The notes beneath the pieces are model-generated. The model was not told the origin of the DNA, did not search any database, and saw only the letters and a list, made by a program, of their open reading frames with translations. 64,000 nucleotides of DNA from Cetorhinus maximus (lineage: Eukaryota), in contig NC_135900.1 of the NCBI RefSeq assembly GCF_964194155.1, positions 13,950,001 to 14,014,000 of the forward strand. The letters run 5' to 3'. Below are positions 27,961 to 53,600 of this stretch, piece after piece. The stretch's first letter is position 1; every line of letters starts with the position of its first letter. Both the position numbers and the translations under genes were made by a program.

Positions 27961-28785
27961 CATTTGGGTGAGGGAAAGCACCCTTTGGGAGAGGTAAGTC
28001 ACCATTTGGGAGAGGGAAGTCACTCTTTAGGAGAGGGAAGGCACCCTTTGGGAGAGGGAAGTCACTCTTTAGGAGAGGGAAGTCACTCTTTAGGAGAGGG
28101 AAGGCACCCTTTGGGAGAGGGAAGTCACCCTTTGAGAGAGGGAAGTCACCATTTGGGAGAGGGAAGTCACCATTTGGGAGAGGGAAGTCACCATTTGGGA
28201 GAGGGAAGTCACCCTTTGGGAGAGGGAAGTCACCATTTGGCAGAGGGAAGTCACCCTTTGGGAGAGGCAAAGCACCCTATTGGAGATGTGTCACCATTTG
28301 GGAGAGGTTAATTACCATTTGGGAGAGGGAAGTCACCCTTTGGGAGAGGGAAGTCACTCTTTAGGAGAGGGAAGGCACCCTTTGGGAGAGGGAAGTCACC
28401 CTTTGAGAGAGGGAAGTCACCATTTGGGAGAGGGAAGTCACCCTTTGAGAGAGGGAAGTCACCATTTGGGAGAGGGAAGTCACCATTTGGGAGAGGGAAG
28501 TCACTCTTTAGGAGAGGGAAGGCACCCTTTGAGAGAGGGAAGTCACCATTTGGGAGAGGGAAGTCACCATTTGGGTGAGGGAAGGCACCCTTTGAGAGAG
28601 GGAAGTCACCATTTGGGAGAGGGAAGTCACCATTTGGGAGAGGGAAGTCACTCTTTAGGAGAGGGAAGGCACCCTTTGGGAGAGGGAAGTCACCCTTTGA
28701 GAGAGGGAAGTCACCATTTGGGAGAGGGAAGTCACCATTTGGGTGAGGGAAGGCACCCTTTGGGTGAGGGAAGGCATCCTTTGGG
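27961..28785. repeat. 21-bp minisatellite (VNTR), ~39 units, consensus TTGGGAGAGGGAAGTCACC(A/C)T
   Basis: Direct tandem repeats seen in the sequence; produces the LGEGSHH / DFPLPNG repeat ORFs. Confidence 0.97.
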
Positions 28786-29749
28786 ATTGTCAGAATTAAA
28801 CATGATTATGCATATTTTATGCACAAACTCATTTTTCATTTGGTTCATAGCATGTGGGTAACATTATAGAGTTTGGCATTTAATGCCTATCTCAAATCAT
28901 CCTGAGAAAGTGATGGTTGGCTTTCTGACACTGCATCTCATGTGGTGATGGTGATGGTGCTACTCCCATGTTGCTGGACAGAGATTTCAGGATTTTCACT
29001 TGGTAACAATGAATGAACAATGATGTATGGCAACGTTAGTTTGGCCTGTGACTTTGAGGGTAATTTAGAGATGACTGTTTTATTCTTGTGTATTTTTAAT
29101 AAGAATATTAAGCATAGGATTTATTTGTTCATTTATTCATTCATGGAAATGGGCATTGCTTGCAAGCCAGCAATCATTGTCCTTCCTAAGCTGCCCTTAA
29201 GAAAATGGTGGTAAGGCAACTTCTTGAACTGCTGCAGTCCGTATGATGTAGAGGGAGGGAGTTCCAGGAACAATGAAATAATGAATCACAATATATGTCT
29301 AAATCAGGATGTTGTTTGGCTTTGAGAGGAACTTCCAGGCAACTGTGTCCCCACGCTCCTGCTGTCCTTGCCCTTCTAGGTGGTAGGGATCATGAGTTTG
29401 GGAGGTGCCGTCAAAATTGCATTGATTTAGTGCCTCAGAATGTCCAGTGCACTCCATAGCCAAGGCATTGCACTTGAATTGTGGTCATTGCTGCCAAGTA
29501 GGTAAAAATGTCTGCCAATTTACTCGGAAGCAAGATCTTACAATCAGCAAATGAAATAAAGGTGTAGTTAATGTGCAATCCTGGAACTTATCCACATTGT
29601 GAACACACCAATGATGTTTCCTTGAAATTACATTTTTATTTAAAGCTAGCAGCTTGAAACCAGTGTGAAGCTGCATTATGAAACAAGTGAACCCTATGCT
29701 GTTGAAGAATCTCAAAGTAAATGTCAGGTACAAATGTGTGGAGCTTATG

Positions 29750-36734: not shown

Positions 36735-37430
36735 CTCGATTTAACAGGTTCGTCCAGCTCTGTGCGCTTGGAATCGGTCCAGCCCTCCATCACCAAAACC
36801 CATGTGGCCCAGCTTCTTTGCCGGGGTGACTTCCCTTTCCTGTAGGATCGGACTGGAGATGGTGATATTCCTTGCTTGGGTTGCCTCGAGCCATGTTAGC
36901 AAAGCTTCTTCAATGTTGGGATAGGTAGCTGTTCTCATCCCCTGCAGGAGAGAATGCCTGCCTGTCGAACTGTTCCAAGACTGTTTGCCTTATGTTTCAC
37001 AATGGTGGACAAACTCAATAGCGGAATCTCCCACTCCATCGTGATGCCTGCTTCCCATTTCACGTCGCTGCTTTCCACTTGCTGTATCAACTTCACCTCC
37101 TCTCTGATTGCCAACACTTTTAACCTTCCCCCAGGTTTAGCCGTACTTGCAGGCTTTGCACTTCCTTTTACAGGGTGGAACACAATGTCAAATGATGGTT
37201 TGCCCAGCGTTCCATGAATTTGTGCTCTTGTGTGTTCTAACTCCCCTCTGATTGGTCAGTGTGGCCATATGACAGACTTAGACAAGTTCAGTTAATCCGG
37301 AGTTACCAGTGCGGAATTTCGGATTTTCACGGGCACTGTTCTATGGGATTTGCTATTCTGCCAGCGGGAGATGATTTCGACATAATCGGAATTTTGTGTC
37401 GTCTGAGTTTGACTCATGGCGATTTCGCTG
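36735..37430 (-). mobile_element. Tigger/pogo DNA transposon 5' fragment (CENP-B-type helix-turn-helix domains)
   Basis: ...KLIQQVES...LSTIVKHK and MRTATYPNIEEALLTWLEATQARNITISSPILQE...GLDRF; terminus reads TA+CAG on minus at 37430. Confidence 0.85.
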
Positions 37431-37811
37431 TACATGATTACATGAATCACAAAAAGGTTACAAGTAATTGGGAAGGGAAATGGAATATTGGCCTTTATTG
37501 AAGGGGGATGGAGTATAAAAGTAGGGAAGTCTTGCTACAGCTGTACAGGGCATTGGTGAGACCACACCAAGAGTACTGTGTATCGTTTTGGTCTCCTTTC
37601 TCAAGGAAGAATATACTTGCATTGGAGGCAGTTCAGACAAGGTTCACCAATCTGATTCCTGGGATCAAGGGATTGCCTTATGAGGAAGAGTTGAGCAGGT
37701 TAGGCTTGTCAGGGTGGATGCTGAGAGGATGTTTCCCCTCGTGGGGGAATCTAGAACTAGAGGGCACAGCTTCAAAATAAGGGGTCTCCCACTTAAGATG
37801 GAGATGAGGAG

Positions 37812-38009
37812 TGTAGTAACTGTAGCTTTAAGAGTTATTGTACTGTGTAGTATCACATGACAGTGTGAATGTATCAGCCTGAAGCATGGGGAACATAAAG
37901 GGTAGAGTTTGTGTCTGGTTGTGGTTCATGATAGAAGCATGTAACTGCTGCTGAAGCCCTGTAAATAAAGTCCACTGTTTCTTATGCCTGGAAAATCAAG
38001 TCTATAACA
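37812..38009 (+). repeat. 5' LTR of Gypsy copy A
   Basis: Direct repeat of 40612-40834; aataaa; TG..CA. Confidence 0.95.
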
Positions 38010-38011
38010 AC

Positions 38012-38024
38012 TGGCGACGAGGAT
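38012..38024 (+). promoter_or_regulatory. Primer-binding site complementary to the tRNA-Ser(GCT) 3' end
   Basis: TGGCGACGAGGAT, 2 nt downstream of the LTR; matches the reverse complement of ...AUCCUCGUCGCCA. Confidence 0.8.
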
Positions 38025-38107
38025 AAATTGGTACTGGCGCTGTCCCTAGCCCAGTGAATGTGAGTATCTTGCTTTAAACAGAAGAAAGGGAAAATATACT
38101 CACCAGG

Positions 38108-39330
38108 GATGCCACTTTTTGACCCCTTCGACTCATCCACAGAGGATTGGAGTCAATATATTGAACACATTGGTTTCTTTTTCCAAGCAAACAAGATAAC
38201 GGAGAAGGAAAAAAAGGAAAGCAATTCCCCTAAGGAGTAAAACTTATAATTTAATTCGTAGTTTGACAGCCCTGAATGCTCCTGATTCTAAGACTTTTAG
38301 CGAGTTGGTAGACCTCATAAAGGATCATTTTCAACCCAAACCCTCCGTAATCATGCAGAGGTTCAAATTTAATTTAATTTGAAAGTAAGAGCCCCGGGGG
38401 AGACCATAGCAAAATATGTAGTGAAGTTGAAGGAGCAAACTGAACCATGTGAATTTCGGGAGATCCTAAATGACATGTTATGGGATCGCTTGGTCTGCAG
38501 TGAGCACAATGATGCCATTCAATGATGCTTACTAGCTGAAGTGAATATCAATTTTAAAGGAGCATTGGAAATAGCGTTTGTGATGGAAAGCACTGAGCGG
38601 GATTCGCAGGCCTTACAGGGTGTACAAGATAGCGCCGTTTTCCAGTTGGGGTGGGGACAGACCGGGTGTGGCGCGAAAACCAGGGAGTCAGCCGCGAAGC
38701 GGGAGACAGGCCCTGCTTTCCGAAAATTTTTAAAAATATACAGGAGACAACTCAGCAGCAAATCTGAACCTGAATTGTTACCGATGTGGAAGTAACCATA
38801 TCCCTGAAACTTGCCATTTGAAAGAGGTGGAGTGCCATTATTGTCATAAAAGAGGGCACATACTGAAGCAATATAAAGCAAGATTGAGACAGACTCCCAG
38901 GCAGCAAAACTAAACTGGTCAATGTACATAATGTAGAAGATCCAGAAACCACAAATTCTGATGTTTATTCTCTATTTAATGTGAAAGTAGGGAAAACAGA
39001 GCCAATCACTATTACTCTGTAGGCCAATGGAAAACCTTTGATTATGGGAGTGGATACCAGTGCATCAGCCACTGTAGTAGGGGAGCACACATTCAAATAT
39101 TTAAACAATTGAATATGGAGCAGACTTCAGCTATATTGAAAACGTATACTAGTGAAAGGTATTCTCACTGTATTTGTTTACTACAAGCACCAGACAGCAC
39201 AGCTCCCTGTGATTGTAGTGGAAGGTGAAGGACCAAACCTTCTAGGTCATAATTGGTTGAGGGAAATTAACTTTGATTGGCCAGTGAGATTTCAAAAGGA
39301 AGCAGGAAGAGTTCCTGAGTTGGAAAAGGA
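38108..39330 (+). pseudogene. Degenerate gag-protease of Gypsy copy A
   Basis: EDWSQYIE, KDHFQPKPSVIMQRFKF, CYRCGSNH..C.F.EVECHYCHKRGH, GEGPNLLGHNWL; frameshifts and stops. Confidence 0.9.
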
Positions 39331-39339
39331 ACATGGCAA

Positions 39340-39960
39340 GTACTTCAAAAAGAGCCTGGAGAGCCAAAGGACCATGACAGGATGCAAAAGGAGTGTGTAG
39401 CCATTCAACAACCTGAGGAAAGAAAGACTGTCTTAAACAGCAACACGGAAGAACAGCAGAAGAAACTCAAGGAGACTGTGCTGAGTTACAGAATTCCAGA
39501 TGAAACAAGTGAGCTTCACAAAGAAAAGGAAAATCTACAAAATGTTACAAGGATCCCTCAGGTCAAAGATTGTACCTCTGGAAAATTGCGCAGAGAAGCA
39601 GAATGAATTTAACACCACTCTGAACAGACTGAAGAACCAGTTGGCAGAGAAGACGCAGCAATGCTCAAGGTTCCAGAAGGAGGCCAACGGATACAAGAAG
39701 GAGACAGAAGAGCTGAAGAATCAGCTGAATGAAGCTAAAGAGGCTTTAGAAGGAAAAGTCGTGGAGCTTTCCAAAATGCAAATGGGTGATGAAGCCATAA
39801 TGCAGCTCATCCCCTAAACTGAACCAGGTTGAGATTTCGCCTGAGAGCAGCCTGTCCGACTGTGAAGTCAAAATGAAGGACGAGACTAAAATCTGTGGTA
39901 GACAGGGGAAGACAAGATGGAAGATGGTTCAGAAAAGACAATGATCGACCCCCCACCCCG
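39340..39960 (+). pseudogene. UACA: Captured coiled-coil coding fragment, UACA-like (UACA/RAI14/ANKRD24 family), replacing pol
   Basis: ORFs 39382-39606 and 39500-39817: MQKECVAI...SYR..DETSELHKE / LQGSLRSKIVPL...FNTTLNRLKNQLAEKTQQCS...KKETEELK...KVVELSK; absent from sister copy B; resembles the UACA coiled coil as recalled from memory. Confidence 0.6.
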
Positions 39961-40611
39961 GCCCCCCAAACACTGCTACAGGTTCAACACCTTCAGAATT
40001 ACTTAAGAAGCGCCACCTTCATACAAGATTAAGCCTGGTACTTCCCAATTTGGAGGGGAAGGTGCAGAACAGTCAAGGGAATCAAAAAGTGACTCATGAT
40101 TTGCATAGTTGAGAGCGAGAATTTACTGTCGGTGAAACAGTATTTGTACGAAACTTTGGTAGATCAAATTGGGTACCTGGTGTAATAGTTTCTGTGACCA
40201 GACCGTTGTTGTACTACGTAGAAGTGGAGGGCTGGATCACCCGAAAATACGTGGATCATTTAAGCAGAAGGGGAACACCCCAATAAACCAATGTTCCACC
40301 TGTAACCATTGTAGAACCTGCAGTCCCCATTATGATAGATCACCCAAGGATAGACATACCAGATGTCTCTGCCAGGGTGGATAACACTGAACTGCCTGGG
40401 CCTAAGGAGGTACCAGATTTTGCTGTGGTTCCAGAAAATGAAGATTCAGTAAGAGATTCTAAAGTTATGGAGCTACGACATTCCACCCAGATCAGGAAAC
40501 CACCCGAGAGACTGAACTTATAATTTCATAACCCCTGAATATTTTTGTAATGTCATGAATGTAGTTGTTTTTGTGAATACAAATTGTAAAAAAAAATTAA
40601 AGGGGGAGGAA

Positions 40612-40834
40612 TGTAGTAATTGTAGCTTTAAGGAATGTAGTGACTGTAGCTTTAAGACTTATTGTATTGTGTAATATCACTTGACAGTGTGAAAGAATCA
40701 GCCTGAAGCACGAGGAACCTTAGGTTGTGTCTAGTTGTGGATGTTGATGGAAGCATGTAACTGCTGCTGAAGCCCTGTAAATAAAGTCCACTGTTTCTTA
40801 TGAGATACCTGTCTGGAAAATCAAGTCCATAACA
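40612..40834 (+). repeat. 3' LTR of Gypsy copy A
   Basis: Follows the polypurine tract; begins with a tandem 24-bp duplication. Confidence 0.95.
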
Positions 40835-41249
40835 AGGAGGAATTTCTTCTCATTAAATTTTGGAATTCTCAACCCGAGGAAGCAGTGAAGGCTGAATCTT
40901 GACACAAACACACATGTTACTAGTTCACTAACACAACCACCACGCTACTATACCCCATAGTTAACTAAAGTCCAATGTTGAATTTCACTTCTTTGAATGA
41001 AACCACATAAAATAATGCTTGAGAGTCTACAGCTCTGGTCTGCATTAACGTCATCCTTTTGCACACGGTAGCAGTTACTGGAGCTTGTGGTAAACTTTTT
41101 ATTTTGGCACTAAGCCTTTTTCTTCATGTTTTCAAAAGCTCTCACCTTGTGAGGCAATACTTTCCTGCAATCTTTTCCACTGTGCTGCATGGATTGAACA
41201 AGGAGATTGATTTAATGAAGTCATTGCCAATGCCAATGACCAATAGACT

Positions 41250-44347: not shown

Positions 44348-47300
44348 TGTCGTGGACTTGATTTTCCAGACAGGTTTCTCATTAGAAACATCAAGCTTTA
44401 TTCACAGGCTGCAGAGCAGTTACATACCTCCTTCAAGCTCCACAACAAGAAGAAGGACTCCCACTCTAAGGTTCCCCGTGCTTAGAGCTGATTTGTTCAC
44501 ACTGTCACGTGATATTATACAACACAATAGGTCTTAAAGCTACAATTACTACATCCCTGCCCCTTTAAACTTTTTGTACAGTTTGTATCTACAAGAACAT
44601 CTACCTTCATGGCATTACAAATATATACAAGGTCATTGAATTATAAGGTGGTTTCCTGATCCGGGTGGAATTTCGCAGCTCCACCACTTTCGAATCTCTT
44701 ACAGGATCCACGTTATCTGGAACCTCAACAACATAAGGTACCTCTTTAGGCACAGGCAGTTCAGGAAGGCGACTTAGGGCAACAGTATTGTTTATACACA
44801 TCCCTAGTCTGTGCAGAAAAATGTTTTCATATGACAGAGACATCTGGTATATCTACCCTTGGTTGAACAATTTCAATAGGGACCACAGGTTCTACAATGG
44901 TTACAGGTGGAATATCGTTTTGTTGGGGTATCTCCCTTCTCCTCAAATGATCCACGTGTTTGCGGGTGATCTTGCCTCCACCTCTACGTGGTACGACAAG
45001 GGTCCTCTCAGAGAAACTATTGCACCAGGTAACCAACTCAATCCACCACTGAAGTTTTGTACGTACACTGCTTCACCAACAGTAAATTCTCACTCACGAC
45101 TATGCAAATCATGATTTGCTTTTTGATTCCCTTCACTTTTCTCCGCCTTCCCCTCCAAATTGGGAAGTGTCAGGCTTAATCTCATTCAAAGGCATCATAA
45201 GTAACTCTGAAGATGTTGAACCTGTAGTAGTGTAGGGGGTTGTTCTATAGTGAAACAGTAAATGTGAAAATTTAGTCTCCAATGAACCTGATATTTTTTC
45301 ATCCCAGCTTTAAAAGTCTGTGCTGCTCTCTCAGCGAATCCATTAGGCGATGGATGATATGGTGCCGTCTTTACGTGTTTGATACCATTTAGGCTCACAA
45401 ATCTTTGAAATTCAGTGCTAGTAAACACAGTACCATTGTCTGAGATTACTTCTGGCAATCCATGTATAGAAAAGCTTTGGCGTAACTTTTCTATAATCGC
45501 ACCTGACATTGGTGACCTAACTTCGTACACCTCTAGCCATTTGGAATGTGTGTCAATTATTAATAGGAACATGGTGCCTAGAAAAGGACCAATGTAATCT
45601 ATGTACAGTCTCACCCAGGGCCTACCAGGCCATTCCCATGGGTGTAGCGAGTCCACAACTTCTGTAGTTGTTGGCATTTTATACAGTGTTTAACCACCTT
45701 CTCGATATCACCGTCCATGCCCTGGCACCAAATGTAGCTTCGCGCGATCATCTTCATTCTTGAGATTCCCGGATGTGCGCTGTGCAACTCTGCTAAGAGT
45801 GGTTCCCTTCCTTGTTAAGGAACAACTACTCGCACACCCCATAGCAGGATACCATCTTGACTGCTCAATTTATTCCTTCGAGTGAAGAGTTGCTTCAATT
45901 CGTCAGGTACTGGTTCCTGGGACCATCCTTTCAACACTTGGTGTCTCACTCTAGACAGGACTGGATCACGATTCATCCAGTTTCTTATCTGTCCTGCGCA
46001 GACTGGCGAGGAAGTCAGGAAATTCATCGCTAATATGATCTCTTAGGGAATTGGGGCATGTTCATTGTTCTCCTGCAAAGGAAGGCGACTTAGGGCAACA
46101 CTATTGGTTATACGCATCCCTGGTCTATACACAAAAATGTTTTCATATGCGGATAAAATTACAGCCCATCTTTGAATTCTTGCAGAAGCTATGGGAGGGA
46201 TAGCTTTTTCTTCACTGAACAGACCCAAGAGCAGTTGGCATTTTATAGGGTGTTTAACCACCAGTGTGGTCAGTGTCCTGAAGCTATTAATGTATATAAA
46301 ATTATTGGAAAATATTTTTCTTTTAAATAGATGTTTAGTCTGTGAGTGTGGCTTCATTGGATTAAAGCCAACTAGTCTGGGTGCTTTGATGTGTACTAGT
46401 TTTGAAATGTCAGAGAGATAGAGTGCTTTTGCATTTTTTGAATAGAGAAGTGGGGATGATGTCCACGTAGACCATGACTTGAGATAGTCCTTCTAGCAAA
46501 TTCTCCATCATCCTCTGGAAAATCATGCAGGTCAAGGAAACACCAAAGGGCAGATACATATATTGATATAACCCTTTGTGGGTGTTTATGATCACAAACT
46601 CTCTGAAGGTATCATCCAGTTCCAGCTGCTGATACACGTGACTCATATCTAGTTTAGTATAAGTTTGTTCCTCCTGCTAATTTAGCATAGAGATCCTCAA
46701 CCTTGGGGATAGGGTATTTATCCAACTTGGCAGCTTTGTTTATGTTAGCTTATAACCCCCACAGATCCGGATGGCCTGATCGGTTTAAGACAGGGAATTG
46801 AACTGGCTGTCTGACCCCCAGCCTCTCTAAATGGTTCAATTTGGTATCAATCTTCTCCCTCAGAGCATATAGAACCGGCTTTGCTTTTCAAAAAAGAGGA
46901 GCTGCTTCTGAGTCAATGTAGACCTTCACCTGTAGAGCTTTGATTCTCCCCAGTTCATCTCAAAAAATCTTGCCTTTTTTTAGGCAGTTCTGGCAGTCCT
47001 CCTACTCATAGCTGAAAAAATTCAGACCAATTTAGTGTCATTTCTTTCAACCAGCCAACCATGACCTAGAAGACTTGGTCCTTCATCTTCTACTACCATC
47101 ACTGGGAGTTGTGCTGTTTGGTGCTTATAATAAACAGGTACAGTGGTAATACCCTTCACTTGGATAACCTGGCCAGTATAAGTTTTCAATTTGGCTGAAG
47201 TCTGCTCCAAATTCAATTGTTGAGTACCCTTGTTTAAATATTTGAAGGTGTGCTCTCCTGCTACAGTGGTTGAAGCACCAGTGTACACTTCCATCATTAA

Positions 47301-48569
47301 AAGTTTTCCATTTACCTGCAGAGTGACAGTGATTGGCTCTGTCTTCCCTACGTTTACATTAAATAGGGAGTAAGTATCAGAATTGGTAGTTTCTGGTTCT
47401 TCCACATGATGTACTTGGATTAACTTAGTTTGCTGCCTGGGAGTCTCAATCTTGCTTTATAATGTTTCAGTGTGTGACCTCTGTTATGGCAAAAATAGCA
47501 CTCCACCTCTTTGAAATGGCAAGCTTCAGGAGTATGATTGCTTCCGCATCAGTAATTATTCATTTACAGATTTGCTGCTGACCTGTTTCCTGAATTTATT
47601 TTACATTTCCGGGCAGCAAGACCTGTCTCCCACTTTGCAGCGGAGTCCTGGCTTTTTAGGCCACACCCGGCTGTCCATTCCCGCCCCGGCCGGAAAACGG
47701 CGCCTTTTTGTGCACCTCGTGTAGCCTGCGCTTCCCACTGGGCGCTTTCCATCACGAGCGCTATTTCCAATGCATTTTTAATATCGAGGTATACTTCAGC
47801 TAATAATTGTTATTGAATGGCATCATCTTACACACCGCAGACCAAATGATCCCTGAGCAAATCGTTTAGGGTCTCCCCGAAATCACAGTTTTCAGTCAGT
47901 TGTTTCAATTTTGCCACGTGTGTAACAATGGTCTACCCCCCACCCCGGGGTCTAATGCTCAAATTAAACCTGAACCTCTGCATGGTGACTGAGGGTTTGG
48001 GTTGAAAGTGTCCCTTAATGAGGTCTACCAATTCACCAAAAGGTCTGGGGGCATTCGAAGTCATCAAACTTCAGCTTAGATTATAGGTTTTACTCCTGCA
48101 AACGCTTAGGAGAATTGCTCTTCTCTTTTCCTCCCCCATGATTTTGTTTGTCAGGAAATGGAACCAGAGGCATTTTACATATTGACATCACTCATCTGTG
48201 GATGGTTTGAAGGGGGTAAATCCTGCCAAAATGGGGCCTATCTGGTGAGTATAGACTCCTTTTCTTATGCTTAAACAAGATATTCACAGTCGCTGGGTGA
48301 GGGACAATGCTGGACCCGATTTATCCTCATCACCAGTTTATTATGGACTTGATTTTCCATACAGGTTTCTCATTAGAAACATCGAACTTTATTTACAGGC
48401 TGCAGCAGCAGTTACATGCTTCCATCAAACTCCACAACTAGAAGAAGGACTCCCACTCTAAGGATCCCTGGGCTTAGAGCTGATTCATTCACATTGTCAT
48501 GTGATACTACATAACACAATAAGTCTTAAAGCTACAGTGACTACATTCTTTAAAGCTGCAATTACTACA
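44348..48569 (-). mobile_element. Gypsy (Mag-like) LTR retrotransposon copy B, decayed
   Basis: LTRs 44348-44553 (3') and ~48339-48569 (5'); TSD caaac/gaaac; CpG-decayed primer-binding site 48323-48335; polypurine tract; gag, protease, RT (LPFG..YVD), RNaseH end (ARIQRWAVILSAY), integrase (HPG..RMK, IDYIGP, SDNG, SPNGFAER). Confidence 0.95.
44640..48235 (-). pseudogene. Degenerate gag-pol of Gypsy copy B
   Basis: ORF fragments 47564-47770, 47022-47405, 46410-46646, 46043-46357, 45815-46027, 45195-45677 in Gypsy order protease-RT-RNaseH-integrase. Confidence 0.92.
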
Positions 48570-48574
48570 GAAAC

Positions 48575-50634
48575 AAACAAAGAACAAAGAACAAAGAAAA
48601 GTACAGCACAGGAACAGGCCCTTCGGCCCTCCAAGCCTGCGCCAATCATATTGCCCGTCAACTAAAACATTTTGCACTTCACGAGTCCGTATCCCTCTAT
48701 TCCCATCCTATTCATGTATTTGTCAAGCTGCCTCTTAAACAACACTATCGTACCTGCTTCCACCACCTCCTCTGGCAGCGAATTCCAGACACTCACTACC
48801 CTCTGCGTAAAAAACTTGCCCCGCACATCTCCTCTATAGTTTTCTCCTCTCACCTTAAATCTATGTCCCCTAGTAATTGACTCTTCCACCCTGGGGAAAA
48901 GTTTCTGACTACCTACTCTGTCCATGCCACTCATAATTTTGTAAACTTCTGTCAAGTCGCCCCTCAATCTCCGTCGCTCTAGTGAGAACAATCTGAGTTT
49001 CTCCAACCTCTCCTCATAGCTAATAACCTCCAGACCAGGCAGCATCCTGGTAAACCTCCTCTGCACCCTCTCCAATGCCTCCAAATCCTTCTGGTAATGT
49101 GGTGACCAGAATTGCACGCAATATTCCAAGTGTGGCCTAACCAAGGTTCTATACAGCTGCAGCATGACTTCCCAGCTTTTATACTCAATACCCCTGTCAA
49201 TGAAGGCAAGCATGCCATATGCCTTCCTGACTACCTTATCCATCTGCGTTGCCACTTTCAGTGACCTGTTGACCTGCACACCCAGATCCCTCTGCCCGTC
49301 AATGCACTTAAGGGTTCTGCCATTTACTGTATAATTCCTGCCTGTATTAGACCTTCCAAAATGCATTACCTCACATTTGTCCAGATTAAACTCCATCTGC
49401 CATTTCTCCGCCCAAGTCTCCAACTGATCTATATCCCGTTGTATCCTTTGACAATCCTCTTCACTATCTGCAACTCCTCCAACCTTAGTGTCATCTGCAA
49501 ACTTACTAATTAGCCCAGTTACATTTTCCTCCAAATTATTTATGTATACTACAAACAGCAAAGGTCCCAGCAGTGATCCCTGAGGAACTCCACTAGTCAC
49601 AGCTCTCCATTCAGAAAAGCACCCTTCCACTGCTACCCTTCTATGACCAAGCCAGTTCGGTATCCATCTTGCCAGCTCACCTCTGATCCCGTGCGACTTT
49701 ACCTTCTGTACCAGTCTGCCATAAGGGACCATGTCAAATGCCTTACTGAAATCCACGTATATAACATCCACTGCCTTTCCATCATCGATCATCTTTGTCA
49801 CTTCCTCGAAAAACTGATCAAGTTAGTGAGACACGACCTCCCCTTCACAAAACCATGCTGCCTCTCACTAATACACCCATTTGCTTCCAAATGGTAGTAA
49901 ATCCTGTCACGCAGAATCTTCTCCAATAATTTCCCTACCACTGATGTAAGGCTCACCGGCCTGTAATTTCCTGGATTATCCCTGCTACCCTTCTTAAACA
50001 ATGGAACAACATTGGCCATTCTCCAGTCCTCTGGGACCTCACCTGTAGCCAATGAGGATACAATGATTTCTGTCAAGGCCCCAGCAATCTCCTCCCTTGC
50101 CTCCCTCAGTACTCTGGGGTAGATCCCATCTGGCCCTGGGGACTTATCCACTTTAATATTCTTCAAGACGCCTAACACCTCCTCTTTTTTGATCTCAACA
50201 TGATCCAGGCTATCTACACACTCTTCCCTAGACAAATCGATTGCTAAGTCCTTCTCTTTGGTGAATACTGATGAGAAGTATTCATTTAGTATCTCTCCCA
50301 TTTCTTCTGGCTCCACACACAGATTCCCACCTCTGTCCCTGAGAGGGTCTAACCTTTCCCTGGCTATCCTCTTGCTTTTTACATATGTATAAAAGGCGCA
50401 GGGATTTTCCTTAATCCTGATTGCCAGTGACTTTTCATGACCCCTTTTAGCCCTCCTGACTCCTTGCTTAAGTTTCTTCTTACTTTCTTTATATTCTCCA
50501 TGGGCTTCATCTGTTCCCAGCCTTCTAGCCCTTACGAATGCTTCCCTTTTCTTTTTGACTAATCTCACAATATCCTTCGTTATCCAAGGTTCCTGAAACT
50601 TGCCATGCTTATCCTTCATCCTAGCAGGAACATG
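48575..50634 (-). mobile_element. Young 5'-truncated CR1 (HER1-like) LINE
   Basis: RT domain: DKSPGPDGIYPR, NYRPVSLTS, QHGF, DFSKAFD, GVPQGSLLGP, KFADD; (ttctttg)n tail. Confidence 0.97.
48662..50634 (-). pseudogene. CR1 ORF2 reverse transcriptase (5'-truncated, one frameshift near 49800)
   Basis: ORFs 49798-51036 (RT part) and 48662-49801 join at LTNLISF/VTKMID. Confidence 0.93.
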
Positions 50635-53600
50635 ATTCTGGCAAGCAGGCTTATAATGAGATGCTAAAGTATCAGGTTCCTGACATACGACGGGTGGAGC
50701 GGATGATCGCAAACTGCTTTCACGATGGCGTGAAACCAATTTTTGGCCTTCTTGCCATATTGTCTGTCTCCACCTCCCCCTGCCCGCCCACCACCTGCCA
50801 TGATGCCCAACACCAACGGGTCTGGAAAATTCCAGCCTATGGTGACATTTTGTGCATTTTCTAGTTAGTTGTTTAAAATCAATGTCTGAAGAGCTGGGTA
50901 ACAAATTGATTGATTTAGAACATGAAATGGCTGTTAATGAACTAAAGGATGCACAACTGTACAGTGCCACTCTAATTAAACGAGAAGAAAAGATAATATA
51001 CTCTATAGTTAATTTATAACGATATAGATACTCCATTATGCTACTGGTTTTCCATCGTTACTCTATTGCTACAATTACTTGACTACAGCTACATCACTAC
51101 TCTTGGATCCATTACACATTTAACTTGAAAAGAGGCTGGCAAATGAAAAGGTTAATATTGTACCAGGACACCATTCATTTTAACATAACCTTTACAGAAT
51201 GAATGACAGAAATATTAGATTTAAGATGAAACGTCACTGTCACCATTGTCCCCCTTTCTATCAAAGCAATTACAAAGAATCACATTTAATGTGGCTTTGC
51301 TCAGTGCTGTCTTTCTGTTGTTTCTTTTTGAATATTTCTGTTTAAACTTGAAAGCGATCGCACTAGCTGACAGTCTGTAAGAAGTAAACAGACAGCAGTA
51401 GAAATGGAGCCATAAATTCAGTAAAGTGTTGAGGCTTCCACTGTGTTAACTTAGCTCATGTTGAGATATTTAAGATCTCCTTCAAGTCAAATCTTCACAT
51501 TAGCAGCTGCTGCTAAAACATCGAGTAAAATTCAACAGATATAAATTAAATAACCAAGTGAATACTTTGGAACTCACTTTATTTGATTTTGGTAATATTG
51601 TTCATTGTAATGCAGCTTATGCAAAACAAAAGCAATCACTCACAGGGAATACACTTTAAATTCTACATGATAGCAAACGAACAAGGAGTTTTAATTTCAG
51701 ATATGACTGCAGGTAGGATTGGGGCCTGTGATTGAGGTTTGTGAATGAAAAAGGAGAAAAGAGAAGGAAGGAGAACATTAAATCCTAAATAATTAAAACA
51801 TAGGAGCATAAGCATAGGGCTTAGAAGGACAAGGGCAGCAGATAGATGGGAACACCACTGCCTGGAAGTTCCCCTCCAAGTCACTCGCCATCCTGACTTG
51901 GAAATTGTTCCTTCACTGTCGTTGGGTCAAAATCCTGGAACTCCTTTCCCAACAGCACTGGGGGTGTACCTACACCATAAGGACTGCAGCAGTTCAAGAA
52001 GGCAGCTCACCACCACCTTCTCAAAGGCAATTAGGGATGGGCAATAAATGCTGGCCCAGCCAGCGAAGCCCACATCCCGTGAATGAGTGAAAAAAAAAAG
52101 AAACTGGACTGCTCTGGGTCAATTTTCAGACTAAAATGGATACCTAAAGGGTCCAATATGTTGGGCAGCAGGTGTATACTCATTCTGTGGCAGAAGGACA
52201 CTACCCGCCATCTTAGTTAGGATTCCTCCTCCTCAAGTACCCAGGCCTTAAAATCCCTGTCCACGTGTAAATCAGGGGCAAGGGTTGGTGGGGGGGGTGG
52301 GGAGGGCTTTGCCTGTTTCAGGCCGTCTTTGCGAAATTTAATCGTGAATGACTGTGGCCTGTTGGTTAATCTTTTCAGGTGCTCAGCATCTAAACCAGCG
52401 ATCATTAATGGGACAGCTGGAGGTTGCTACCTGATAGGTGATTTTTCTAAAGAAAGATTTTCTTGCTTATTGCAAGAGCGAGCCTCCCGGCTTCACATTA
52501 AATCCGAGGGCTGCTGCCGTCTATCGCTAGCTGATCGCTCCTATCCAGGCTTGGTTGCAGATCTCACTTGGCTTAGTCGCTGAAAATTCCACCATACCAC
52601 AGCTAGCGCGCTGTCACTGGTACCCACAGAGAGTGCCCACAGCTTGTCCCAGTTCAAACAGGATCCCATTTACCGGCCTGCGGACTAAGGCCAGGTAAAG
52701 GATTGGAGAATTACGCAGAAGGGTTGGCTAGAAATAATGTAGCAATGTTTATCCAGGACTCTTAATATGTACCCATGTGAAACCGGCCGTTTGTCATCGG
52801 TTTACCCAGTGGACGAGTTGCGGAAAAGTGAAATGGTTTCCTTGGCGTTGTAATTTTATTTAATGAGAAGCTTTATTTGGTGCAACGTGAAACTAAAATG
52901 TCCCATTGCAGATTGTAAAAAAAAAAAAGCCCATTTCACGGGCCACTCTAGGTAAAATCACTTAATCTCGCTGGAACCTGACCTCATTACTTTTGGTTGC
53001 TATTGTGTAAATGTCAAAGCTAACAGAGGCCTCTGGAAGAGGAGCAGTCCACTGAGAGGAATAAATATTTTTTAAAAGGCATGCCTCTCAGGATCCATGT
53101 AATTGTCCATACCGTGTCGTGACTCTGCTCACCACGACACTCTTGGCCTTTGACCCTGTCAAACCCCCTCAAACCTTCCAATTTATTTCTGGGGCCCTGT
53201 GAATAGAAGCAAGTGGATCAGATTTTGCCTAACAGACGTTCTGTTACCACATTAAGGCATCTGGATTTCAGTTATTGTGCGCACCCTAAAGTCCGAACAG
53301 TGACAAAGCATCGCAAGAGACTAATTGGTCTATCGGAGTGAGATTTATTACGAAAAAGTGCGGGACATCCATAAAGCCATTTAAGCCCCGGGAACAGTTT
53401 ACTTTTCAGGATGTGACTTGTCAGATTAGATTATACATGCAACCCAAAAGGAGTAAGGATTCTAGATTAGTGACATGGTGCTTTTTAATGTTGTAAAACA
53501 GTAAAGGGCTTTCAGCCCCTGCAGGTTATAAATATTAATATGAAAACAAAATTACTTAACCAAATTTACTTTTTCAAATGGTTAGTGAAAGGGCTTTAAA

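Follow-up and report, generated by a model that had tools for sequence, protein, structure and literature searches.

The window analysed here, that is the whole stretch of 64,000 nucleotides of Cetorhinus maximus DNA (contig NC_135900.1, positions 13,950,001 to 14,014,000), carries on its plus strand an LTR element, copy A (37812-40834), that is inserted in a LINE fragment and bounded by an exact 5-bp target-site duplication (37807-37811 on the left, 40835-40839 on the right). Its 5' LTR (37812-38009) and 3' LTR (40612-40834) have TG...CA ends and are 83% identical, its primer-binding site (38012-38024) is complementary to the 3' end of tRNA-Ser(GCT), and a polypurine tract (40599-40611) adjoins the 3' LTR. 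These are all features of Ty3/Gypsy elements, and an earlier note made from the sequence alone had read both LTRs, the primer site, the polypurine tract and the perfect duplication correctly. The motif complementary to the primer site gave 5 genomic matches, against 0 for a control, and the two that were fetched are tRNA-Ser(gct) genes according to ARAGORN. From the primer site only, we presume that the family belongs to the Mag clade.

The internal part begins with a gag remnant that includes a zinc-knuckle region (38100-38985) and is homologous to the sister copy B and to the pol-bearing family F, followed by an aspartic protease remnant (38986-39259) with its D-T-S/G site at 39053, both of which are broken in copy A. 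Among A-family copies, a complete CCHC motif was found in 11 of 20, and the protease active site reads DTG in 10 and DTS in 6 of the 28 scored; the corresponding protease part of copy B matches gag-asp_proteas with an E value of 1e-4, below the cut-off. After the protease come a Gypsy protease-RT linker of a different backbone, called A2-type below (39260-39381, with a 5' recombination point near 39260), two segments of the UACA coiled coil (39382-39720 and 39712-39815), a segment derived from EEA1 and partly read in a shifted frame (39816-39915), and a basic tail that ends in a family-wide stop codon (39916-39944, the stop at 39942-39944). An integrase C-terminal remnant (39964-40520) lies downstream of this stop. 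We read copy A as a decayed copy from a Gypsy LTR family that lacks pol and has many copies.

Other elements lie in the same window. Copy B (44353-48569, minus strand), which is the sister copy and a member of the pol-bearing family F, has an rve match above the cut-off and its own RT/RNase H deletion, several hundred bases of this region being absent relative to other F copies. Adjoining the 5' LTR of copy B is a LINE (48569-51057, minus strand) with two long RT-bearing frames of 386 and 419 aa (RVT_1 above the cut-off); an inverted copy at 2399-2884 matches the end of this LINE with 97% identity, which indicates that the LINE is much younger than the LTR elements. A tandem array at 27963-28786 consists of 39 copies of a 21-nt unit with 87% matches and no indels, and one of its minus-strand frames encodes a 7-residue repeat. 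A short minus-strand frame at 36938-37255 looks by eye like the helix-turn-helix remnant of a DNA transposon and had no Pfam match.

Composition of the insert

Copy A aligns to the inverted copy B only over 37809-39259 and 39964-40829, and the insert between these blocks is missing from B. The earlier note had placed the resumption of homology correctly (about 39965) and its stop too far downstream (about 39330, in place of 39259); it was also right that some 620 bp are absent from B, but not that all of them are coiled coil, as 39260-39381 is a Gypsy linker of another lineage and UACA sequence begins at 39382. With the 110-residue ORF at 39485-39814, the protein search that the note had proposed gave the expected result, a single match among 348 candidates, to shark UACA (57% identity, E 3.8e-11). 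At the nucleotide level the insert is 72-75% identical (E 2e-63) to the genome's own UACA exon (G000:C27:11440482-11443211, where G000 is this genome), which comprises 911 open codons and matches 39382-39720 and 39712-39798 of the window. The two UACA pieces lie 450 nt apart in the host exon and meet in copy A at a 9-nt repeat, so that the second joins the first over an in-frame deletion of 450 nt at a 9-nt microhomology.

The UACA origin that the note had proposed therefore holds for 39382-39815 and fails for about 39816-39915, which matches an EEA1 exon (G000:C12:57061483-57061593) with 72% identity over 68 nt (E 0.002). This match is present in 20 of 30 A, 32 of 35 X and 6 of 14 A2 copies (families X and A2 are described below), and the host gene was identified as EEA1 by the FYVE exon with which it closes, whose best match in the PDB is EEA1. 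Nearly all of ninein and the whole of TPR are absent from the cargo of family A, which is a subset of the cargo of family X. In the lineage of copy A, the pieces taken from UACA, EEA1 and ninein each fall inside single host exons, that of UACA within one large exon, and the trace of splicing comes from the TPR part of family X, described below. Pfam gave only generic coiled-coil matches on the insert, all below the cut-off, and neither of the two Gypsy-to-cargo joints of A has a clear exact shared word. A LINE-mediated processed pseudogene of UACA does not fit, the pieces being LTR-flanked internal fragments and not a poly(A)-bearing copy outside an LTR context.

Copies, age and reading frame

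A first search with the insert gave 3915 candidate places, related families included; the 40 that were scored all match over at least 570 of 621 nt, and the 39 non-self places among them are 84-89% identical to it. Such a match across places is not chance. The linker common to A and A2 gave 1354 candidates and a stretch found in A2 only gave 818, neither figure being a copy number. Exact 5-bp target duplications, all different, are kept in 7 of the 21 A copies examined, in agreement with the note's proposal of a mobilised non-autonomous family: the A family has many independent insertions and neither an RT nor an integrase core. As the two LTRs of a copy are only 73-90% identical (17 pairs scored), the family is old, and all copies seen are old and broken.

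Of the best 30 A loci, 28 could be scored at the protease-side anchor and 26 at the integrase-side one. In 22 of the 28 copies protease and UACA lie a multiple of three apart, with a single modal value; modal distances throughout the insert are all multiples of three, and natural copies have protease and coil in one open frame. The frame breaks of copy A near 39340, 39540 and 39800, with two more in the protease, are private to it, and the family state is one frame, much as the earlier note had foreseen when it proposed that compensating frameshifts would restore a continuous Gag-protease-coiled-coil reading. The TGA at 39942-39944 was found in 25 of the 26 A copies scored (30 examined) and closes the frame upstream of the integrase tail, which, as this stop is so widely common, is not part of the protein.

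The linker-UACA joint is spanned by contigs from two further organisms (codes B and C), and the 3' joint by contigs from organism B, so that the chimera is not private to this genome; the contigs come from sequencing runs that are only guessed to be RNA, and breadth across species rests on sequencing reads only. A search for proteins of near length found two, neither of which was counted as a second species; one of them, P0005, is an uncharacterised annotated protein encoded in this genome itself.

A four-gene mosaic in a second LTR family

Searching the genome with UACA also gave copies with longer UACA pieces, which form family X. This family has other LTRs and another primer site than A, is devoid of pol and gave no DNA match to the gag or protease of A. 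Its 5' frame resembles a retrotransposon Gag N-terminus (ESM Atlas scores of 0.95 and 0.92 to unnamed and retrotransposon-gag clusters), an identification that rests on ESM Atlas and the LTR context; searches of X Gag against F by tblastn and tblastx gave no true match, a CCHC motif was found in 0 of 43 X copies, and pol, sought as the mark of an autonomous partner, in 0 of 13 loci.

The Gag N-terminus of X is followed, in this order, by UACA, EEA1, ninein and TPR, and the host loci of all four genes were located in the genome. The EEA1 piece (90 nt) is the end of one host exon, ninein is matched with an E value of 6e-10, and TPR with an E value of 1e-40 and with Pfam PF25481 above the cut-off. 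TPR exons 3-11 are contiguous in X, although host introns of up to 7.5 kb lie between them, and the exon joints are contiguous and in frame in 11 of 11 copies for e5-e6, 10 of 10 for e6-e7, 14 of 14 for e7-e8 and 9 of 11 for e8-e9. The template was therefore a spliced host mRNA.

At nine joints between host pieces, studied in windows of 30-35 nt placed by hand, the longest shared words measure 5-13 nt, with four of at least 10 nt and one of 9 nt; only 1% of random UACA window pairs reach a shared word of 9 nt. Shared UACA deletions of 102, 126, 282 and 450 nt mark subfamilies. The shared joints of X are mostly in frame, the two that cross the EEA1 piece not clearly so (7 of 16 and 1 of 5). From Gag to UACA, a first count of distances was not in frame (9 of 33); only the column counts, 330 and 258 in two X subfamilies, were.

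Between Gag and UACA, X has a coil-like stretch of about 55 codons (56 residues, L152:2918-3170) that gave no match to the four host proteins tried and may be a fifth captured gene. One X subfamily has a permuted order, with the UACA-end/EEA1 piece ahead of the main UACA segment (L041:4311-4490, L042, L045 and L058, oriented), and L041 also holds pieces of two further EEA1 exons.

Relationships between the LTR families

Family A shares with X both the UACA-EEA1 joint and the 450-nt deletion. In a tree rooted on the host exon (50 rows, 345 columns), A groups with short X at 100/100 and lies within short X at 97/89; these bootstrap values are rough, and the tree left out 5 interrupted X copies, 14 of 30 A copies and all of A2. 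By this tree and the shared deletion, the cargo of A came second-hand from a shortened X subfamily and not straight from a host mRNA. The earlier note's template-switch capture thus keeps its switch signature and loses its single step, a direct capture of UACA mRNA giving way to the donor family X.

The sister family A2 has the 5' joint, the deletion and the ORF end of A on a backbone about 70% identical to that of A, its stop being a TAA at the same place in 10 of the 12 copies scored (14 examined). Counted per codon, synonymous differences between A and A2 are, for gag, protease, linker, UACA and integrase tail in turn, 0.38, 0.41, 0.11, 0.15 and 0.27, and those between A and F to 0.12 in gag, 0.15 in protease, 0.38 in the linker and 0.03 in the integrase tail. 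In a sliding profile, identity to F drops near 39260 from 73-89% to 65-68% and identity to A2 climbs there to 75-92%. These distances and this profile indicate that A combines the backbone of F with a cassette taken from one of A2 type. Among 30 loci there was no pol-bearing element with the A2 backbone, and the direction of this last hop is therefore one that we infer. Copies of F bear RVT_1, RT_RNaseH, Integrase_H2C2 and rve in that order, which is the Gypsy pol order; LTR identity is 84% between A and F, against 85% within A, and F also has A's primer site. F, with these LTRs, this primer site and an RT, RNase H and integrase of its own, probably acted as the helper of A.

Between the stop and the integrase remnant, A2 copies have about 185 nt of intervening sequence (L159:2012-2200). 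The frame-shifted tail at the ORF end (L157-L170) has a strongly basic character in A2 and a moderately basic one in A, and presumably resembles a nuclear-localisation signal.

Selection on the cargo

Ratios of replacement to silent change (N/S) were measured relative to a baseline of single-copy (singleton) changes; net-divergence dN/dS was set aside, as it gives 0.43-0.60 even within families. Protease (0.12-0.38) and gag (0.30-0.56) are clearly constrained. For the UACA cargo the relative N/S is 0.57-0.94 in most comparisons, with values of 0.80 (p 0.54) for A against A2, 0.57 (p 0.23) for A against short X and 0.60 (p 0.11) on element-only branches; A against long X (0.37, p 0.015) is the only significant comparison. 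The cargo is thus under weak constraint at the amino-acid level, without significance in most comparisons.

Stops are absent from the 133 family-level codon changes (7.4 expected, P 5e-4) and from the 60 changes on element-only branches (3.9 expected, P 0.02). Replacements relative to the host are conservative (mean BLOSUM 0.52 against -0.17, p 0.001), but on element-only branches the same test is not significant (p 0.17). In-frame joints were rejected as proof of selection, given that, among the short repeats of the UACA exon, 52-84% keep the phase by default. We read the cargo as an open frame, probably translated, whose demands on sequence are loose.

Proposed history and role of the cargo

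On balance we consider it probable that copy A belongs to a pol-less Gypsy family whose cargo was relayed from another LTR family and is likely a self-pairing coiled coil in the place of RT. At the origin of X, host mRNA served as template, as the intron-less TPR shows, giving a Gag N-terminus joined to UACA, EEA1, ninein and TPR, and the mosaic was then shortened, its joints and nested deletions falling at short microhomologies; template switches of RT in co-packaged RNA, following the model of PMC5131818, are the likely route of both capture and trimming. From a short X subfamily about 560 nt passed into a Gypsy backbone primed by tRNA-Ser, a step that the tree and the shared deletion show, and there took the place of RT, RNase H and the integrase core, joined to the protease in frame. 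Cassette and linker would next have moved from an A2-type to an F-type backbone to form family A, the mosaic being visible in the distances above. Thereafter A may have been copied in trans by the pol-bearing family F, with which it has LTRs and primer site in common, and its cargo may have been translated and kept open since the element made its own Gag-protease, a dimeric coil behind the protease helping it to pair as RT does in HIV-1 Gag-Pol.

A homodimer model of the cargo scored 0.54, against 0.00 for the best of 3 controls, although memory of coiled coils may account for this score; the modelled coil is parallel and spans the deletion joint, and runs agree in at least 73% of contacts with a pLDDT of at least 71. 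In calibration, 21 of 30 solved homodimers from microbes came up to this mark, against 0 of 23 monomers; for eukaryotes the figures were 17 of 29 and 0 of 30. A single-sequence fold of the cargo had low confidence (pLDDT 46.5) and was too poor for a fold search. In HIV-1, RT aids the pairing and activation of the protease in Gag-Pol (PMC11998509), and a zipper placed behind the protease raises its activity (PMC3291649). With this model and these precedents, we favour a role of the cargo as a self-pairing protein clasp, which we regard as likely; it counts against it that a zipper fusion harms particle yield in HIV-1 (PMC3291649). More tentatively, and with some doubt, one may think of a new structural protein, built from four coiled-coil mRNAs and passed between unrelated LTR families, that replaces native oligomerisation parts. 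The parts replaced might then be the Gag C-terminus and zinc knuckle in X and the RT behind the protease in A and A2, a possible if questionable natural counterpart of laboratory leucine-zipper swaps.

The main rival to the clasp is a cargo that rides along with no role of its own: microhomology switching would favour purine-rich coiled-coil mRNAs once one of them is aboard and would tend to keep the frame, which would stay open only since premature stops or broken frames downstream of Gag-protease would be detrimental to the RNA or the polyprotein. The weak N/S constraint, the proportion of short repeats that are in phase anyway, the spread of widely differing deletion forms of the cargo and the shifted frame in which the tail of A is read all fit such a passenger. 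It accounts less well for the lack of family-level stops, for the conservative replacements relative to the host (a signal that fades on element-only branches), for the homodimer model and for the retention of the cassette, with the same ORF end, through two changes of backbone (A and A2 backbones being about 70% alike), and we judge it rather unlikely.

Much less probable still is a decoy directed at the host, in which the coils would bind or jam their partners (the nuclear basket for TPR, the endosome for EEA1, the centrosome for ninein) or, at the RNA level, small RNAs made from the element would be directed at these genes, a mechanism suggested for TART-A and nxf2 (PMC7785250). TPR, as a nuclear-basket protein, would be a natural target for an LTR element, and the capture of high-interaction domains has been proposed by Abrusan et al. 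2013 (PMC3597677); yet family A lost TPR and nearly all of ninein and still spread widely, the cargo is only 72-85% identical to the host and drifting, and its pieces are cut up by nested deletions. That A's own Gypsy family took UACA mRNA directly, in a single capture, X being derived from A or independent, is scarcely credible: the UACA match is real, but A has the UACA-EEA1 joint and the 450-nt deletion of X with only a subset of its cargo, and its nesting in short X on the host-rooted tree contradicts this order of events.

Comparison with known systems

In defective retroviruses that transduce oncogenes, viral genes have given way to a host mRNA that is fused to Gag, and a helper gives the enzymes, a likeness to the present case; here the elements are in the germ line, have no env, carry structural coiled coils and not signalling domains, and have long been fixed. 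LTR-mediated capture of host genes is a known process, seen in maize Bs1, in the LTR retrocopies of animals and in the host domains of TE families. Bs1 is, like the present families, an LTR element with spliced pieces of several host genes, re-mobilised and with common switch points (PMC5131818). It has three parents and one to five copies, whereas here the parents number four, each a long coiled-coil protein, candidate places run from hundreds to thousands, and the cargo is fused to retained Gag or Gag-protease and has passed between LTR families. The statement in the earlier note that such capture is poorly documented for vertebrate Gypsy elements was too strong, given the LTR-mediated retrocopies of zebrafish, chicken, mouse and human reported by Tan et al. 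2016 (PMC5131818). Those are likewise partial mRNA copies in LTR elements with microsimilarity at their joints and include multi-gene chimeras, among them a four-gene one in mouse; their loci are young and low-copy, whereas here large and old families, which nested deletions have diversified, have the chimera as their standing ORF.

TE families with fixed fragments of host genes, a part of them under selection, were also described by Abrusan et al. 2013 (PMC3597677), in whose main text, the supplementary list of 51 cases apart, coiled coils gave 0 matches. The zebrafish BHIKHARI families (Bik-1/2) are pol-less fish LTR families that combine Gag with a coiled coil and have a partner for pol, but in Bik the coil sits at the N-terminus and has a retroviral (foamy-like) and not a host origin, and Bik copies are young and intact (PMC12067270). 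TART-A with nxf2 is also a retroelement that holds a piece of a nuclear-export-related host gene; it is a non-LTR element with a proposed piRNA action, whereas the cargo here is in-frame coding sequence (PMC7785250). Our search of the literature, repeat libraries and supplements apart, turned up neither this family nor a mosaic made up of coiled coils only, nor a cargo relay between vertebrate LTR families.

These families take host-gene capture by vertebrate LTR elements far past rare retrocopies, to a four-gene mosaic that is standing coding content in families for each of which candidate places number about a thousand or more, and they leave a legible fossil series of joints, deletions and backbone swaps. 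Copies are annotated as uncharacterised genes, of which P0005 is one, and will confound searches for UACA, EEA1, ninein and TPR in shark genomes. They also make it testable why non-autonomous elements retain their own Gag and what captured host sequence gives them.
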